Positions 15,035-23,670 of a stretch of 56,925 nucleotides of DNA are shown here, one piece after another. The position numbers were made by a program, and so were the translations under genes. The DNA lies in the NCBI GenBank assembly GCA_938074525.1, contig CALJEX010000073.1:1-56925 (forward strand), given 5' to 3'. This DNA comes from an uncultured Gammaproteobacteria bacterium (GTDB lineage Bacteria > Pseudomonadota > Gammaproteobacteria > UBA4575). The notes beneath the pieces were generated by a model that worked only from the letters and a program-made list of their open reading frames with translations, was not told where the DNA came from and did not search any database. Each line of letters opens with the position of its first letter. The first letter of the stretch is position 1.

Positions 15035-15060
15035 AAAAATAAGAGTCTAACCCTATTTTT
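15035..15060 (+). repeat. TCTGACCC-family boundary site
   Basis: AAAAATAAGAGTCTAACCCTATTTTT, 25 nt downstream of the HEPN gene stop. Confidence 0.6.
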
Positions 15061-15085
15061 ACTTTAAGGAACTGTTACCTTATCC

Positions 15086-15499
15086 CTACAAATTCTTTTT
15101 TATAATATCTAATAGGAACTCTGCCTTGGCAATACATTCGCCAACTGAAGACTCAGGTACAATATCACCTGTATAGTCCGCACCATTTCTTTGTTTGCGC
15201 AATACATCTAACACAATGATCACATCATTTTCAATATCTAATGTCTTCGACAAGCTTTGCATCATTGTTTGGTGATGACCAGGTTTACTAGTTAATGTGC
15301 GATAACCATTCATTTGCAAAGCAGCATTGGCTATTTGCATAATCGCTTTGTAACCTGCATCAAAGCGATTTTCAGAGCTCACTTCTTTAACATAAGCATC
15401 CGCAATATTTCTTTCCGCAGCACGAATTAATTTTTCAATCGCATTTTTGTCAGGTGAAATTTTTTCTAGCGTGCGACCAACTAGATTATCTAAGCTCAT
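15086..15499 (-). CDS. HEPN-domain protein (toxin partner of upstream nucleotidyltransferase)
   Basis: Helical; RFDAGYKA, GYRT..KPGHH, LRKQRNGADY (R-x4-Y variant of HEPN R-x4-H); ATG 15499 overlaps the upstream gene end. Confidence 0.7.
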   Translation of the reverse strand: MSLDNLVGRTLEKISPDKNAIEKLIRAAERNIADAYVKEVSSENRFDAGYKAIMQIANAALQMNGYRTLTSKPGHHQTMMQSLSKTLDIENDVIIVLDVLRKQRNGADYTGDIVPESSVGECIAKAEFLLDIIKKNL

Positions 15500-16070
15500 G
15501 CTCGGTTCCAATCACAAACAATTTAGGGTTTTCTTTCACCTCTTTATAAAAAACTTCTTTGTTCTTTTTTAATGCTTGCCACTCTTTTCCAGTAAAAATT
15601 TTAGGGTTCACTTCACGTGCGAGTGCTTTTTCAATTGGTTGCAACAACTTTACCATAGCACTCAATTGAACTTCGCCAATAACTAACAGATCCAAATCAC
15701 TTGCCGACTCTGCTTTACCACTTGCTATTGACCCATACACCAAGGCAACTTCAATATCAGCACTCACCGGCGACAAAGCATCAACCAGCACATCAACCAC
15801 AGCCGATGTCTTACGCAAGATACTCGCCAGCTCTTCATAAACTATGCAGTCTGTGTTTGCATAATATTGGAGCTGGTTGCCAATAGATTCCTTCATTAGA
15901 ATGCCGACTCCCTCCAAACGCTTAAGTTCTTTATGGAGGGTACCAGGCATCGTCCCTGTCAGACGGGCAATTTCACGCACGTGATAACGCTTATCAGGAT
16001 GCAGCAACAGCAATCCCAACACACGTTTTCGGTAATCTTTAAAAAGCAAATCTGCGAGTGATAGAGACAT
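15486..16070 (-). CDS. HTH + minimal nucleotidyltransferase (MNT) antitoxin-like protein
   Basis: N-terminal wHTH (HVREIARLTG...LHKELKRLE) and C-terminal VYGSIASG....SDLDLLVIG MNT motif; ATG 16070. Confidence 0.85.
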   Translation of the reverse strand: MSLSLADLLFKDYRKRVLGLLLLHPDKRYHVREIARLTGTMPGTLHKELKRLEGVGILMKESIGNQLQYYANTDCIVYEELASILRKTSAVVDVLVDALSPVSADIEVALVYGSIASGKAESASDLDLLVIGEVQLSAMVKLLQPIEKALAREVNPKIFTGKEWQALKKNKEVFYKEVKENPKLFVIGTEHELR

Positions 16071-16080
16071 AAACTCATAA

Positions 16081-16128
16081 TGTAGCAATAATTGCTACGA
16101 TTGTAGTATTATTTGCTACACTATGCAA
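16081..16128 (-). promoter_or_regulatory. sigma70 promoter overlapped by tandem palindromic operators
   Basis: Minus strand TTGCAT-17nt-TACAAT (16128-16100); palindromes TGTAGCAATAATTGCTACG (16081-16099) and TGTAGTATTATTTGCTACA (16102-16120). Confidence 0.75.
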
Positions 16129-16269
16129 TCATCATTTTCCGAAAAAATTATTGTCTTAAGGGCGCAGACAACATTATGCTGAGCAAATAAGCATCATATT
16201 CTTTGGATGCACTCTAGAAATTACAAAAAAAGTTCTGAGAAGATTAATCAAGTCTGTCTCAATAACTAT

Positions 16270-16914
16270 TTATGACGTCTTAAAACTCTCGACAGGTTTA
16301 ACCTCTAGTGGATCAAACTCTTTGTGTTGTTTTCTCAAACTATCTCTGACTTTGAATTTATCTTTTTTGTCGCTGATGATTCTATAGACCAGCAATATCA
16401 CTGCCACACCTAGTGAGATAAGTCCCATACCAAAGGCTGTATATAATTGACCTACCATATAAATGATGCCCAGCCCGGATGCAATAAGCACAAGCCCCAA
16501 GATGAACGCTCCATGACGACTAGCGTCATAAACATCGTGATAGTCTTTGGCTGGTGACACGATTAAATTAACATCCTGTCCTGTCACATAGCTCAATGTT
16601 CCCGTTCCACCTTCGCTACTTAAGGTCGTCACCACTTCCCCATTGGGCATGGTGTATTGGAACACTGGGTAAAGCGTGTGTTTTACCTTTTCCACTTCTT
16701 TACCATCTCTCATTTTCTTTTTGACTCTGGTTTGATTAATTGCACCTACCACCTTGCCAGGTACACGTATTCCAAACAGACGCATATAGGTCATGGCCAC
16801 TATTAAGAATAAGCCTATCAACATTAAAACAATGGCAAGCAGTACCCACATAGAGAACAGCTCTGAAAACAAAGACTCCACCGCCAAAAAGATATATTCC
16901 ATGAAACATTCCAA
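16270..16914 (-). CDS. DUF3592-like membrane protein
   Basis: TM, GKVVG, YPVFQY..PNG, Y..GQ.V.LIV, then TM segments; start may be ATG 16902. Confidence 0.7.
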   Translation of the reverse strand: MECFMEYIFLAVESLFSELFSMWVLLAIVLMLIGLFLIVAMTYMRLFGIRVPGKVVGAINQTRVKKKMRDGKEVEKVKHTLYPVFQYTMPNGEVVTTLSSEGGTGTLSYVTGQDVNLIVSPAKDYHDVYDASRHGAFILGLVLIASGLGIIYMVGQLYTAFGMGLISLGVAVILLVYRIISDKKDKFKVRDSLRKQHKEFDPLEVKPVESFKTS

Positions 16915-17030
16915 TAAATAATATGCCTAGTATATTAATAAGCTGATCATTAAATAATAGAAGCAAACAGACTAATGGTAATCATATGACGCCTGGTAAC
17001 ATAGACGTTATGGTTATAAATAGACATCTT

Positions 17031-17050
17031 AAAAAGGTTCTGACCTCTTT
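17031..17050 (+). repeat. TCTGACCC-family boundary site
   Basis: AAAAAGGTTCTGACCTCTTT downstream of the minus-strand EGKCG gene. Confidence 0.55.
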
Positions 17051-17130
17051 TACCCCTTGTTTCCCAATTGTGTTGCCCACAAAAAAGGCGAACTTACGTC
17101 CACCTTTTTACAACCTAATGATGCAGAAAA

Positions 17131-22211: not shown

Positions 22212-22326
22212 ATTGTAACTCAGAAACTATTAATATAGTTAACCAGTTAGCTGTAATATTATGCTTTTAAATGAATATGACTTATCAGTTATAACCCAGC
22301 AGAGACATTTATTCTTCAATCTAAAT

Positions 22327-22431
22327 AATAAAAGCGCTCTGACACCTTATTATTAGATCTAAGACCGAGATGTGAGGCATGAACGACACATTCAAACTAG
22401 AAAGAAAAAGAATTTGAGTCTGATCCTACTT
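22327..22431 (+). repeat. two TCTGACCC-family boundary sites
   Basis: AATAAAAGCGCTCTGACACCTTATTATT (22327-22354) and AAAAGAATTTGAGTCTGATCCTACTT (22406-22431). Confidence 0.7.
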
Positions 22432-22447
22432 GCTTAGTTGCTAAAGA

Positions 22448-23122
22448 TTACTTTTGTTTTCTTAGATTCCTACTACTAAGCAATAACACACCAAATGCAG
22501 AGGAAAACAGCCAAAATGCCGCAGGGATTGGCACCACTGTTATTGAACTTGCAGAGCCTCTCGCTCGCTCAACGCCTGACTCAAAAGTTAGTCTAAAAAA
22601 GTCAATGTTTACTGATACAGGTGACTGATCTAGGCCGCCCCTACTGACTTCTGCAAAACTCTGCCCAATGCCCAAGTCATTTAAAAACAACTGAGTAATA
22701 GTAATAGCACTACTACCAAAAATAGGTAAATCAATAGCGAAAATGACCGTGTCAACGACGGAACTACCAATAATACCAACACTTGTTTGATCGCTTGTTG
22801 TAATGTTAGGCGAGAAGTCTGTACTCGTCGGATCATAACTTCCCACATTTCCTGATAGTGCAGTTAAAGTTGCACTGGTCAATGCATTAAGGAACTGTCC
22901 CGAACGATCGATATAGCCAATACGATTGCTCTCAGAATTATTAGTATCGAGCACTGAGTCATCAATACTGAATAAAAACTGAAATTGATCACCGACATTA
23001 ATATCTGAGAAATTAGAGCTAGAGATAGTAAAGACAGTACTATAACTAACTATCGCTGCATGACTTATATTACCGAAGCCAATTAGCAAAAAAATAAAAA
23101 ATACTCTTCTTGCATAGTTCAT
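22448..23122 (-). CDS. exported protein with VPLPA/PEP-CTERM-type sorting signal
   Basis: Signal peptide ending SHA-A, Ser/Thr-rich body, C-terminal VVPIPAAFWLFSSAFGVLLL-SRNLRKQK; ATG 23122 preferred. Confidence 0.8.
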   Translation of the reverse strand: MNYARRVFFIFLLIGFGNISHAAIVSYSTVFTISSSNFSDINVGDQFQFLFSIDDSVLDTNNSESNRIGYIDRSGQFLNALTSATLTALSGNVGSYDPTSTDFSPNITTSDQTSVGIIGSSVVDTVIFAIDLPIFGSSAITITQLFLNDLGIGQSFAEVSRGGLDQSPVSVNIDFFRLTFESGVERARGSASSITVVPIPAAFWLFSSAFGVLLLSSRNLRKQK

Positions 23123-23265
23123 TACAACCCAACCTTTTTTCATAATCCAATGCATTTTGCTACAGATGATATTAGTTGTCTAAAGAAATAATTAGCCTTA
23201 GTCAGTGGTATTGATTTACCTAAGGTTTAGAGTATGTGAGAGGACTTCGATCCCTTTTTACTGAA

Positions 23266-23305
23266 AAATAAAAACGTGGTCTGTATCTTATTATTCCTTA
23301 TTATT
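23266..23305 (+). repeat. GTGGTCTGT-type boundary site with duplicated tail
   Basis: AAAATAAAAACGTGGTCTGTATCTTATTATT-CCTTATTATT. Confidence 0.6.
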
Positions 23306-23322
23306 CTTCCCCAATTAACTCT

Positions 23323-23634
23323 CTATTGATCTATAGATAAAGAATCATAGATATCTAGTGCTCTATTTCTATAATTATCTGAAACCCAAAAGACACACCA
23401 TTCTAACACAAGAAATATTAGCCAATTGAATGATAGAAATGGTTTCAAGAAATCTATAATAGTTAATTCATTATGACTTGCAGCAAAACCACCACTAATA
23501 ATTGCACTAATTGGAACAATCAAAATTGCCACTAAAAAAGCAATAAATAGCGAAGAACTCACCTTCATCAAATAATCAGCATAAGCTTCTTGTGCTCTTC
23601 TAGAGCGATCTTTAACTTTTATATTCTTAGTCAT
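23323..23634 (-). CDS. hypothetical two-TM protein
   Basis: Very AT-rich ORF with two hydrophobic segments; ATG 23634. Confidence 0.6.
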   Translation of the reverse strand: MTKNIKVKDRSRRAQEAYADYLMKVSSSLFIAFLVAILIVPISAIISGGFAASHNELTIIDFLKPFLSFNWLIFLVLEWCVFWVSDNYRNRALDIYDSLSIDQ

Positions 23635-23641
23635 TTGAGAC

Positions 23642-23670
23642 AAAAAATTCGAGTCTGACCCTATTTATTT
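23642..23670 (+). repeat. TCTGACCC-family boundary site
   Basis: AAAAAATTCGAGTCTGACCCTATTTATTT, near-identical to 19309-19336. Confidence 0.8.

Follow-up and report, generated by a model that had tools for sequence, protein, structure and literature searches.

Co-oriented repeats between the genes of a hypervariable gammaproteobacterial island: probable copies of TIRYT-type transposase repeats

Introduction

Tyrosine transposases with GGGGWSAS terminal inverted repeats have been described as TIRtrons or TIRYTs (Di Nocera et al. 2013, PMC3733652); in the available parts of that account, inverted repeats flank the Y1/HUH gene at a short distance that is conserved, and the repeats are moderately abundant and occur as singles, dimers and clusters. 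Flanking inverted repeats of the form GGGG[AT][CG]A[CG] are given for TnpA_REP subclass 2.1 (Quentin et al. 2018, PMC6006769), which the accessible text reports without REP-like structures and which Laurenceau et al. equate with RAYT Group 1 (Bertels et al. 2017, PMC5581495). In the sections available on the classical REP/REPIN-RAYT systems (E. coli, Pseudomonas, Stenotrophomonas), two inverted repeats enclose the transposase gene (Nunvar et al. 2010, PMC2817692; Bertels and Rainey 2011, PMC3116915); inverted doublets are dispersed intergenically and inherited in synteny, and repeats are found mainly downstream of genes. For the procA arrays that occur with TnpA_REP in marine picocyanobacteria, Laurenceau et al. 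proposed a diversifying role of the transposase and later note that strong evidence on causality is lacking in either direction (bioRxiv 10.1101/2020.03.09.984088, available text).

Here, we analysed a contig of 56,925 nt (CALJEX010000073.1, assembly GCA_938074525.1; the whole stretch is called the window) from an uncultured gammaproteobacterium of the lineage UBA4575, in which related short sequences stand at gene boundaries between 15.0 and 23.7 kb. The sites are very probably non-autonomous terminal inverted repeat copies of a RAYT-type Y1/HUH transposase (TIRYT, RAYT Group 1 or TnpA_REP subclass 2.1), and the system is a further case of the already published TIRtron/TIRYT class. A cassette-looking array is thereby placed in a recognised class, that of repeat families spread by domesticated Y1 transposases.

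Results

A local pile-up of decayed repeat copies

The twelve sites listed in the initial annotation are all present where it had placed them, on the + strand, and the ORF stops at 15086, 19380, 19902, 20691, 22448 and 23323 were likewise correct. Position weight matrices (PWMs) trained solely on copies outside the array, with a threshold of 14 bits, gave 12 matches of at least 14 bits at 15.0-23.7 kb, all on the + strand, compared with 0.31 on average and at most 2 in 100 dinucleotide shuffles and with 60 matches in the remaining 1.899 Mb of the genome (0.275 per 8.7 kb). The clustering and strand bias that had been suspected are thus borne out by the genome scan, and decayed copies are locally piled up ~40-fold in the array. 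The PWMs recovered 11 of the 12 sites and added a weak one at 23238; the site at 19309 stayed under the threshold and was recognised by eye only. The features are as follows.

4268 to 4289, - strand: C-type, left arm of an inverted doublet, housekeeping half; 31.0 bits
4308 to 4329, + strand: right arm of the same inverted C-type doublet, housekeeping half; 31.4 bits
14127 to 25545, no strand: hypervariable island, from the rhodanese gene (ends 14126) to acrB (25546-28620); gene content differs among relatives
15038 to 15059, + strand: A-type, decayed; 24.6 bits; 27 nt from the HEPN gene stop (15086)
17031 to 17052, + strand: C-type; 25.3 bits; minus-strand RNA hairpin of -7.7 kcal/mol; 79 nt before the EF-hand gene stop (17131)
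19309 to 19337, + strand: decayed A-type, core short by a base or two; seen by eye only
19355 to 19376, + strand: C-type; 26.7 bits; minus-strand RNA hairpin of -11.2 kcal/mol; abuts the stop of a 95-aa ORF (19380)
19877 to 19898, + strand: C-type, terminator-like; 28.2 bits; -9.2 kcal/mol; terminator-scan match 19898-19874; abuts the DUF2490 stop (19902)
20608 to 20629, + strand: C/A intermediate, first of three tandem copies past the stop of a 506-aa ORF (20691); 19.3 bits; terminator-scan match 20624-20612
20630 to 20651, + strand: B-type, decayed; 16.9 bits
20658 to 20679, + strand: C-type; 24.5 bits; -9.3 kcal/mol; 12 nt from the stop at 20691
22330 to 22351, + strand: C-type, decayed; 19.7 bits; -7.4 kcal/mol
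22411 to 22432, + strand: A-type, decayed; 22.4 bits; no hairpin; 16 nt from the stop of a 235-aa ORF (22448)
23238 to 23259, + strand: doubtful weak copy, absent from the initial annotation; 14.5 bits, at the threshold
23272 to 23293, + strand: B-type, decayed; 24.8 bits; no hairpin; 30 nt from the stop of a 106-aa ORF (23323)
23646 to 23667, + strand: A-type, near consensus, just upstream of the start of the 106-aa ORF; 31.0 bits

Exact TCTGWCCC occurs six times in the window against 1.15 expected, a number reached in none of 100 shuffles. Across the genome, TCTGACCC as a bare 8-mer shows no enrichment (31 copies versus ~33 from a composition estimate), and six of the eight genome-wide matches to the motif within its A-rich/T-rich context lie inside the array. 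Every gene between 19.3 and 23.7 kb is indeed bracketed, as had been claimed, each intergenic gap holding 1-3 copies and none being empty. The spacing from stop codon to repeat ranges from 4 to 79 nt in the array, and the repeat copy number in this genome is ~35. The family had been thought absent from the housekeeping half of the window, where the inverted doublet at 4268(-)/4308(+) contradicts this.

Three repeat subtypes, A, B and C, share the core GGGGWCAGA on the minus strand; on this complementary strand the subtype consensuses read GGGG (AGGG in the A-type), then A or T, then CAGA. The GGGGWSAS motif is present in all three consensuses, and the decayed array copies are off by 1-2 bases. 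A and B are non-palindromic, and C forms a hairpin with a 6-bp stem and a 7-nt loop. The C-type copies are self-complementary, their minus-strand RNA folding at -7 to -11 kcal/mol versus -3 to -4 kcal/mol in shuffles. On the gene-sense strand, -7 kcal/mol or better is reached by eight array copies out of 12, seven of them C-type or C/A and one A-type (15038). Among the five A/B-type array copies, four lack a fold, their values of -1.6 to -5.0 kcal/mol being near the shuffled ones. The terminator consensus scan picks up two array copies (19877 and 20608).

Nearly the same A- and B-type sequences are found in very distant bacteria. The 18-21 nt subtype cores are almost letter-for-letter the same across very distant Proteobacteria, and three diverged subtypes coexist at a single locus; both are modest observations. 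The exact A-type 18-mer that forms the core of the 23646 copy was found in at least 120 metagenome contigs; 14 of the 80 contigs kept also hold a transposase homologue, in several cases 46-70 nt away.

Y1 transposase genes flanked by the same repeats

The only Y1_Tnp gene of the 95%-complete assembly (57.6 bits) lies off the window's contig, on contig C117 (2771-3097, minus strand). Its best NCBIfam model is REP_Tyr_transpos with 72.9 bits, versus 27.6 bits for IS200; together with the transposases of relatives (G numbers below), the scores are 65-73 bits for REP_Tyr_transpos, below the cutoff of 80, 52-57 bits for Y1_Tnp and 19-28 bits for IS200. The HVH and Y...NP stretches are invariant in the transposase alignment, and the proteins thus have the HUH motif, the catalytic tyrosine and RAYT-like signatures. 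The gene is bracketed by B-type copies in inverted orientation at 2422(-) and 3241(+), and nine more copies lie within 4.2 kb of it. A frameshift seems to interrupt it within four consecutive A around residue 170 (position by eye), since its C-terminus is found in the next ORF. The search for a transposase remnant in the window and that for a C-type-flanked transposase in the 95%-complete assembly were negative, the genome's own gene having B-type flanks and the array being mostly C-type.

In G055, G023 and G011, the transposase ORFs have a C-type copy on either side, - on the left and + on the right, and in G016 repeat-pattern matches bracket the Y1 gene. Among 45 homologue loci with full flanks from other Proteobacteria, GGGG[AT]CAGA[CG]C stands on both sides facing the gene in 23, on one side in 15 and on neither in 7, so that 38 of 45 have a repeat on at least one side. 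Within 350 nt of the homologues the orientation is side-specific (50 to 3 upstream, 34 to 2 downstream), and beyond 350 nt the ratios are 14 to 7 and 13 to 7, respectively; near transposase genes, the repeats thus form side-specific, co-oriented runs. The guess of a REP-associated HUH/Y1 transposase in the initial annotation is therefore supported, since the same repeats flank Y1 genes in this genome and in relatives and fit the published TIRtron/TIRYT class.

Family genomes with a Y1 gene hold 6.4 matches to the C-type pattern each (n = 8, 51 in total) versus 1.5 in those without (n = 48, 73 in total), a comparison among 56 genomes whose kin are not independent. Furthermore, G055 carries a 280-bp internally deleted element, consisting of two repeats and a transposase C-terminal remnant, in two copies of 100% identity, which suggests recent copying of the doublet form.

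Gene turnover in the island

The island contains an HEPN/MNT pair, MerC, a methyltransferase, DUF2490, DUF3800, HSDR_N_2 and several orphan ORFs; none of the 95-, 235- and 106-aa ORFs had a Pfam or PADLOC match, and those of the 506-aa ORF, for which no relative was found in metagenomes, stayed below the threshold. G002, G006, G012 and G013 have different gene content between or beside the same flanking genes. The gene turnover in the island is real, as the region is hypervariable within the genus. The GC content is 33-39% in the island, 41-43% in the right (acrB) flank and 35-40% in the left flank.

Repeat pattern matches occur in 36 of 56 family genomes, and the 4268/4308 doublet is kept at the syntenic place in G002 and as a single copy in G008. 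The DUF2490 gene is found in five genomes, where the homology breaks off no more than a few bases from the ends of the ORF, and has flanking repeats only in this genome and, on one side, in G006, whose DUF2490-acrB spacer holds a B-type doublet where homology with the window stops. For the homologues of the 95-aa ORF (G014) and of HSDR_N_2 (G003), no flanking repeat of at least 16 bits was detected. For all three shared genes, homology stops at or inside the ORF ends, and most relatives are repeat-free there. On C117 and in G055, G023 and G011, small, unrelated and mostly orphan genes lie between repeats around the transposase genes. Contigs from four independent metagenome studies show the same arrangement and no joints, and no segment delimited by two array copies was seen again elsewhere in the genome or in relatives.

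Discussion

The locus shares with the TIRYTs the Y1/HUH genes with inverted flanking repeats at a short, conserved distance, a core that fits GGGGWSAS, the moderate abundance and the occurrence as singles, dimers and clusters; unlike what the available account of that class describes, three diverged subtypes are interleaved at one locus here, in a gene-spaced, strictly co-oriented run on a 57-kb contig without a transposase gene. The probable assignment to TnpA_REP subclass 2.1 is based on protein size and extension, flanking repeats, distribution and copy number: the proteins have 229-241 aa and a conserved C-terminal extension past the Y1 core, are widespread in Proteobacteria, and have low-copy flanking words within GGGG[AT][CG]A[CG] inverted repeats. 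In contrast to that subclass, Pfam finds no helix-turn-helix in the extension, and the C-type copies are true hairpins. With the classical REP/REPIN-RAYT systems the locus has in common the transposase gene enclosed by inverted repeats, the dispersed intergenic doublets kept in synteny and the position of most repeats downstream of genes. These systems, as far as their available descriptions go, differ by a GTAG head, by hundreds of copies rather than ~35 and by alternating units rather than co-oriented singlets, and the A- and B-types here are non-palindromic. With the procA arrays the locus shares the same transposase branch beside co-oriented runs of small genes, although those are, in the available text, paralogues facing the transposase and come with no repeat family, whereas here the genes are unrelated and the repeats evident.

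As to how such an array could arise through TIRYT-type spread, the transposase, or for the C-type a lost relative, would have bound and cut the repeats on single-stranded DNA, and copies would have been seeded into tolerant intergenic DNA of the flexible island. Spread from one side could have given the same-direction runs, as beside such genes elsewhere, and copies may persist just past stop codons, being presumably harmless there. In gene sense, the C-type is predicted to form a hairpin with a U-rich tail, which may help to end or stabilise transcripts. That the window copies themselves were recognised or moved by a Y1 transposase is what we infer from sequence, the one hint of mobility being the 280-bp pair in G055. 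In annotation, it is advisable to mask such sites as repeats rather than to take them for attC sites of integrons, uptake sequences or novel regulatory motifs.

The array resembles those of integrons in that its genes are co-oriented, unrelated and in many cases orphans, that a related short repeat follows each of them, and that the variable region contains a toxin-antitoxin-like pair. Accordingly, gene capture would have a Y1 transposase acting in trans cut two direct copies, circularise the gene between them and re-insert it beside another copy, resulting in an integrase-free, integron-like cassette array. A RAYT dimer that cuts two direct REPs to yield a circle was proposed by Nunvar et al. 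(PMC2817692, available text). The hypervariable island, the genes bracketed by same-direction copies, the orphan genes split by repeats also around the transposases and the G006 doublet at a homology endpoint are in line with such a process, which we nevertheless regard as unlikely. The repeats do not travel with the genes, as the homologues of DUF2490, the 95-aa ORF and HSDR_N_2 show; different arrays carry unrelated cargo genes, the distance from stop to repeat is variable, the array copies are decayed, no unit is seen twice, and the identical duplicate in G055 is an inverted doublet rather than a gene between direct copies. The view of the sites as targets or scars of gene capture is thus not supported, and the family's conserved syntenic position at 4268/4308, the joint-free contigs and the lack of a transposase remnant in the window also speak against it. 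The conserved repeat unit has ~22-30 nt, with 17-38 nt shared in the repeat families; attC sites are clearly longer. As had been stated for the window, an integron integrase is absent, and the profile search of the 95%-complete assembly also gave none: its two Phage_integrase matches, the only tyrosine recombinases there, are XerD (385.6 bits, cutoff 329.6) and XerC (373.4 bits, cutoff 335.15), on which integron-integrase models reach 83-142 bits against cutoffs of 265-435. It is an improbable extension that, across marine gammaproteobacterial flexible islands, co-oriented single TIRYT repeats mark gene-sized units that a Y1 dimer peels off as single-strand circles and pastes beside another copy. 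If true, such shuffling would parallel that of integron cassettes on single strands and without an integrase, would be a new gene-shuffling route in these islands, and would explain the orphan genes between repeats around the transposases of C117 and three relatives.

Origin outside the genome and a role as plain terminators were weighed as well. Had the segments been horizontally acquired from repeat-rich donors, the repeats would have come with the island, and the array would therefore be donor background and not in-situ spread. The GC content of the island against that of the acrB flank, the orphan ORFs (95, 235, 106 and 506 aa), the near-identity of A- and B-type sequences in very distant bacteria and the interleaved subtypes agree with this origin, which is very unlikely given that the family is endemic to the genus, with the C-type doublet syntenic in G002 and G008 and the pattern in 36 of 56 family genomes, that a cognate transposase gene is in the same genome, and that 12 of 12 copies keep one direction across segments differing in gene content. 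Intrinsic terminators, alike by chance or constraint and without a link to a transposase, would account for sites 4-79 nt beyond minus-strand stops, for the eight folded copies and for the two terminator-scan matches. Yet that scan gives six sites at 14-25 kb versus 6.7 expected, four of the five A/B-type copies are unfolded, the structured motif is nearly absent at the 3' ends of this genome's other genes, and the same 17-21 nt sequences flank Y1 genes, inverted, in many genomes, which leaves terminators an extremely remote candidate.

Two further candidates were rejected, namely a classical GTAG-tagged REP (no subtype has a GTAG head, four of five A/B array copies are unfolded, and there are ~35 copies, not >100) and IS200/IS605 or a non-autonomous derivative (no recurring unit between array copies; 19-28 bits with the IS200 model).

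Some observations run counter to the TIRYT reading. This genome has no visible transposition event, its copy number is far under that of classical REPs, and the uniform orientation of all 12 copies is unlike alternating REP clusters. The mostly C-type array goes together with a B-type-flanked, apparently frameshifted transposase, whose REP_Tyr_transpos score is below the model cutoff. A last point of this kind is the mixed orientation to neighbouring genes outside the array, with five copies opposite and five the same here and 10 and 6, respectively, in relatives' loci, and the weak link of orientation to GC skew, with which 24 of 33 singlets agree, or ~9 of 14 loci by manual row grouping.

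A cluster of co-oriented repeats in a variable island

The initial annotation had reported 12 short repeats between 15.0 and 23.7 kb of the window; all 12 were present and on the plus strand, and the six stop codons it had named beside them were correctly placed. The window contains six exact copies of TCTGWCCC against 1.15 expected, a number reached in none of 100 shuffles. Over the whole genome the bare 8-mer was not enriched (31 copies versus ~33 estimated from composition), and a structured scan for the motif in its A-rich/T-rich context yielded eight copies in the source assembly (1.9 Mb, 123 contigs, 40.6% GC), six of which are in the array. 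The window makes up one entire contig of this assembly (C73, 56,925 bp). A DNA uptake sequence was rejected, as the 8-mer occurs at chance level genome-wide and the contextual motif is local.

To avoid circularity, position weight matrices (PWMs) were trained solely on copies outside the array. The genome scan with these PWMs confirmed both clustering and strand bias: 12 matches of ≥14 bits fell within 15.0–23.7 kb, all on the plus strand, compared with a mean of 0.31 (maximum 2) in 100 dinucleotide shuffles and 0.275 per 8.7 kb in the rest of the genome. They recovered 11 of the 12 annotated sites, and site 19309 is a decayed copy lacking one or two core bases that is recognizable only by eye. 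Across the assembly ~35 copies appear genuine at a score of ≥15 bits; at 16 bits the reversed-sequence control gave 4–5 matches per subtype versus 14–20 real ones. Three subtypes were distinguished:

A-type: core TTCGAGTCTGACCCTATT, no real stem
B-type: core CGTGGTCTGTCCCCTATT, no real stem
C-type: core AAAGGGCTCTGACCCCTTT, hairpin with stem AAAGGG/CCCTTT and a 7-nt loop

Read on the opposite strand, all three share GGGG (AGGG in the A-type) followed by A or T and CAGA. Copies outside the array are distributed over other contigs of the assembly as follows:

C117: 12 copies
C120: 5–6 copies
C39: 3 copies
a few further contigs: single copies

The annotation had placed no motif in the housekeeping half of the window, which is contradicted by an inverted doublet at 4268 (minus) and 4308 (plus). 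The related genome G002 has this doublet at the syntenic place (88.7% identity over 5 kb), and G008 has retained one of its copies there. G008 and G012 also have inverted doublets that are flanked by ordinary genes. The window contains no tRNA gene from which attachment sites made of tRNA fragments could derive, no Rfam family matched at the gathering thresholds, and a literature search for the 13-nt B-type core returned no match.

In RNA of the gene-sense (minus) strand, folding energies of −7 to −11 kcal/mol (shuffles, −3 to −4) were obtained for eight array copies out of 12, namely the A-type copy at 15038 and the seven that are C-type (or C/A). The remaining four A/B copies, at −1.6 to −5.0 kcal/mol, are near the shuffled values. 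Two repeat copies passed a terminator scan, which overall showed no excess (six sites versus 6.7 expected). The C-type hairpin, with its U-rich tail past stop codons, may weakly terminate transcripts or stabilise their 3′ ends.

The repeats flank Y1 transposase genes

The sole Y1_Tnp gene of the assembly is located on C117 (57.6 bits), and its ORF carries the HUH and tyrosine motifs. Its best NCBIfam model was the REP-associated tyrosine transposase (72.9 bits, below the cutoff of 80), with the IS200 model at 27.6 bits. Repeat copies lie on both sides of the gene:

C117 2422, minus strand: B-type copy at the 3′ end of the Y1_Tnp gene
C117 2771–3097, minus strand: Y1_Tnp gene
C117 3241, plus strand: decayed B-type copy ~105 nt upstream of the Y1_Tnp start

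Further A and B copies, one doublet and another transposase fragment, which is truncated, were found within 4.2 kb. The gene seems to carry a frameshift in a stretch of four A close to residue 170, a position read from the sequence by eye, and the C-terminus of the protein was found in the next ORF. Within C117:869–3136, 1.3 kb separates the truncated fragment from the Y1 gene, and repeat copies lie upstream of both. We also noticed, at C117:3631–3662 and in a G055 locus (L046:6342–6375), partial tandem duplications of 13–16 nt that begin at the CTGACCC core of the repeat; such duplications may have been left by slippage or by repeated rounds of cutting and rejoining.

Within the bacterial family, eight of 56 genomes carry a Y1 gene. 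In G055, G023 and G011 a C-type copy lies on either side of the transposase ORF, the left one on the minus and the right one on the plus strand, and in G016 the gene is bracketed by matches to the C-type pattern. These transposases are 52–54% identical to the C117 protein and have a conserved C-terminal extension, in which no Pfam domain was found. With up to two mismatches allowed, the C-type pattern gave 51 matches in the eight Y1-bearing genomes and 73 in the 48 genomes without Y1, counts that include chance matches and come from kin that are not independent.

Locus L046 of G055 (C1:832000–851999) contains two 280-bp elements (5143–5422 and 6086–6365) that are 100% identical and in direct orientation, with two small orphan ORFs between them. 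In each, two inverted C-type repeats enclose what is left of the C-terminal end of the transposase. The element is a miniature, internally deleted derivative of the transposase unit that appears to have been copied recently, the sole sign of recent copying in the repeat family; the duplicated unit is an inverted doublet and not a gene between direct copies. No transposase remnant was detected in the window itself (best tblastn E-value 0.18).

Beyond the family, 595 stretches (one genome per species) encode relatives of the C117 transposase, in Beta- and Gammaproteobacteria, Desulfobulbales and others. Of the 80 stretches that were kept, 45 had full 3-kb flanks. Among these 45, GGGG[AT]CAGA[CG]C facing the gene was present on both sides in 23, only upstream in 13, only downstream in two and on neither side in seven, and the B-type sequence recurs almost letter for letter in most of them. 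At least 120 metagenome contigs contain the A-type 18-mer without a mismatch; 14 of the 80 loci kept from these also encode a transposase homologue, several at 46–70 nt from the repeat. The suggestion of the annotation that a REP-associated HUH/Y1 transposase is involved is thus supported by repeats flanking Y1 genes on C117, in the four relatives and in other Proteobacteria.

The array repeats belong to a known family

Di Nocera et al. (2013, PMC3733652) described TIRYTs as transposases located between terminal inverted repeats, forming units called TIRtrons, whose repeats share the motif GGGGWSAS and form moderately abundant families as singles, dimers or clusters. Quentin et al. (2018, PMC6006769) placed most TIRYTs in TnpA_REP subclass 2.1, whose proteins have a C-terminal extension and whose flanking repeats carry GGGG[AT][CG]A[CG]. 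According to Laurenceau et al. (bioRxiv 10.1101/2020.03.09.984088), this subclass equals RAYT Group 1, which Bertels et al. (2017, PMC5581495) described as the widest group, with flanking 16-mers that occur ~12 times genome-wide. The array family matches all of these described features, the subclass being assigned by features and not from a tree, and the array repeats are a new member of the known TIRYT/TIRtron repeat family. Unlike classical GTAG-tagged REPs, they lack the GTAG head, most A/B copies are unfolded, and there are ~35 copies.

Gene capture and the orientation of the array

The array lies in a hypervariable island between a rhodanese gene (ending at 14126) and acrB (starting at 25546). 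Gene content beside these anchors differs in each of G002, G006, G012 and G013, and in G006 the anchors are 54 kb apart. GC content is 33–39% in the island, 41–43% in the right (acrB) flank and 35–40% in the left flank. The island encodes:

HEPN/nucleotidyltransferase (MNT) pair (15086–16088), matching both parts (A and B) of the PADLOC candidate defence system PDC-M05 (E-values 5e-72 and 2e-61)
MerC
methyltransferase
DUF2490 protein
HSDR_N_2 protein
DUF3800 protein
EF-hand protein
several orphans

The initial annotation read this arrangement as an integron-like array built by gene capture and saw no integrase; the only tyrosine recombinases of the assembly are XerD and XerC. Four other genomes also have the DUF2490 gene (80–86% identity), the homology ending a few bases from the ORF ends, and its flanking repeats are present only in the window and, on one side, in G006. 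No repeat was found near the homologues of the 95-aa ORF (G014) and of HSDR_N_2 (G003), and no relatives of the 506-aa orphan were found in metagenome contigs. Different arrays carry unrelated cargo genes, and no unit between two repeat copies recurs. The stretch is present in 19 public runs from eight studies. Contigs from four of these studies (99–100% identity) crossed the repeats unchanged and showed no joints at ~5x depth, a level at which rare excision would escape. Two loose contig ends (23296 and 23666) lie directly at the margins of repeats, the latter probably being a repeat cross-match because its continuation resembles the copy on C120. In the tests run, the repeats were not tied to gene movement, and the cassette-capture reading of the array is not supported and is unlikely.

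The strongest orientation rule found is the side-specific orientation beside transposase genes. Within 350 nt of the transposase, upstream repeats were oriented 50 to 3 and downstream ones 34 to 2, compared with ~2 to 1 farther away (14 to 7 and 13 to 7, respectively). Co-oriented runs are therefore normal beside such genes, and they also occur in the metagenome loci of the A-type 18-mer. A constant orientation with respect to the adjacent gene was not general, with counts outside the array of 5 to 5 in the own genome and 10 to 6 in loci of relatives. A replication-strand rule showed a weak trend only, 24 of 33 singlets and ~9 of 14 loci being concordant with local GC skew. For the array as a member of the TIRYT family, we infer that one end of a transposase unit, now lost or elsewhere, was the source from which copies would have spread locally, that they would have landed in the tolerant intergenic DNA of the island, and would have survived just past stop codons, being harmless there.

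Other repeats in the window

A second, unrelated palindromic repeat of ~30 nt (18263–18291 and 19213–19249) with stem halves ATGTCYGCT and AGCRGWCAT brackets the methyltransferase gene (18304–19005). It occupies ~10 loci in the own genome, and copies with 90–97% identity are found at many places in many relatives. A methyltransferase homologue (87–89% identity) is located elsewhere in G008 and G013, with copies of the palindromic repeat at the edges of the homologous block or next to them. The methyltransferase with its repeats resembles a mobile unit bounded by repeats more closely than does any part of the TCTGACCC array. The EF-hand protein gene contains a 15-nt tandem repeat (17139–17213) that recurs in homologous genes of many relatives, and its copy number varies among metagenome contigs, with different letters inserted.
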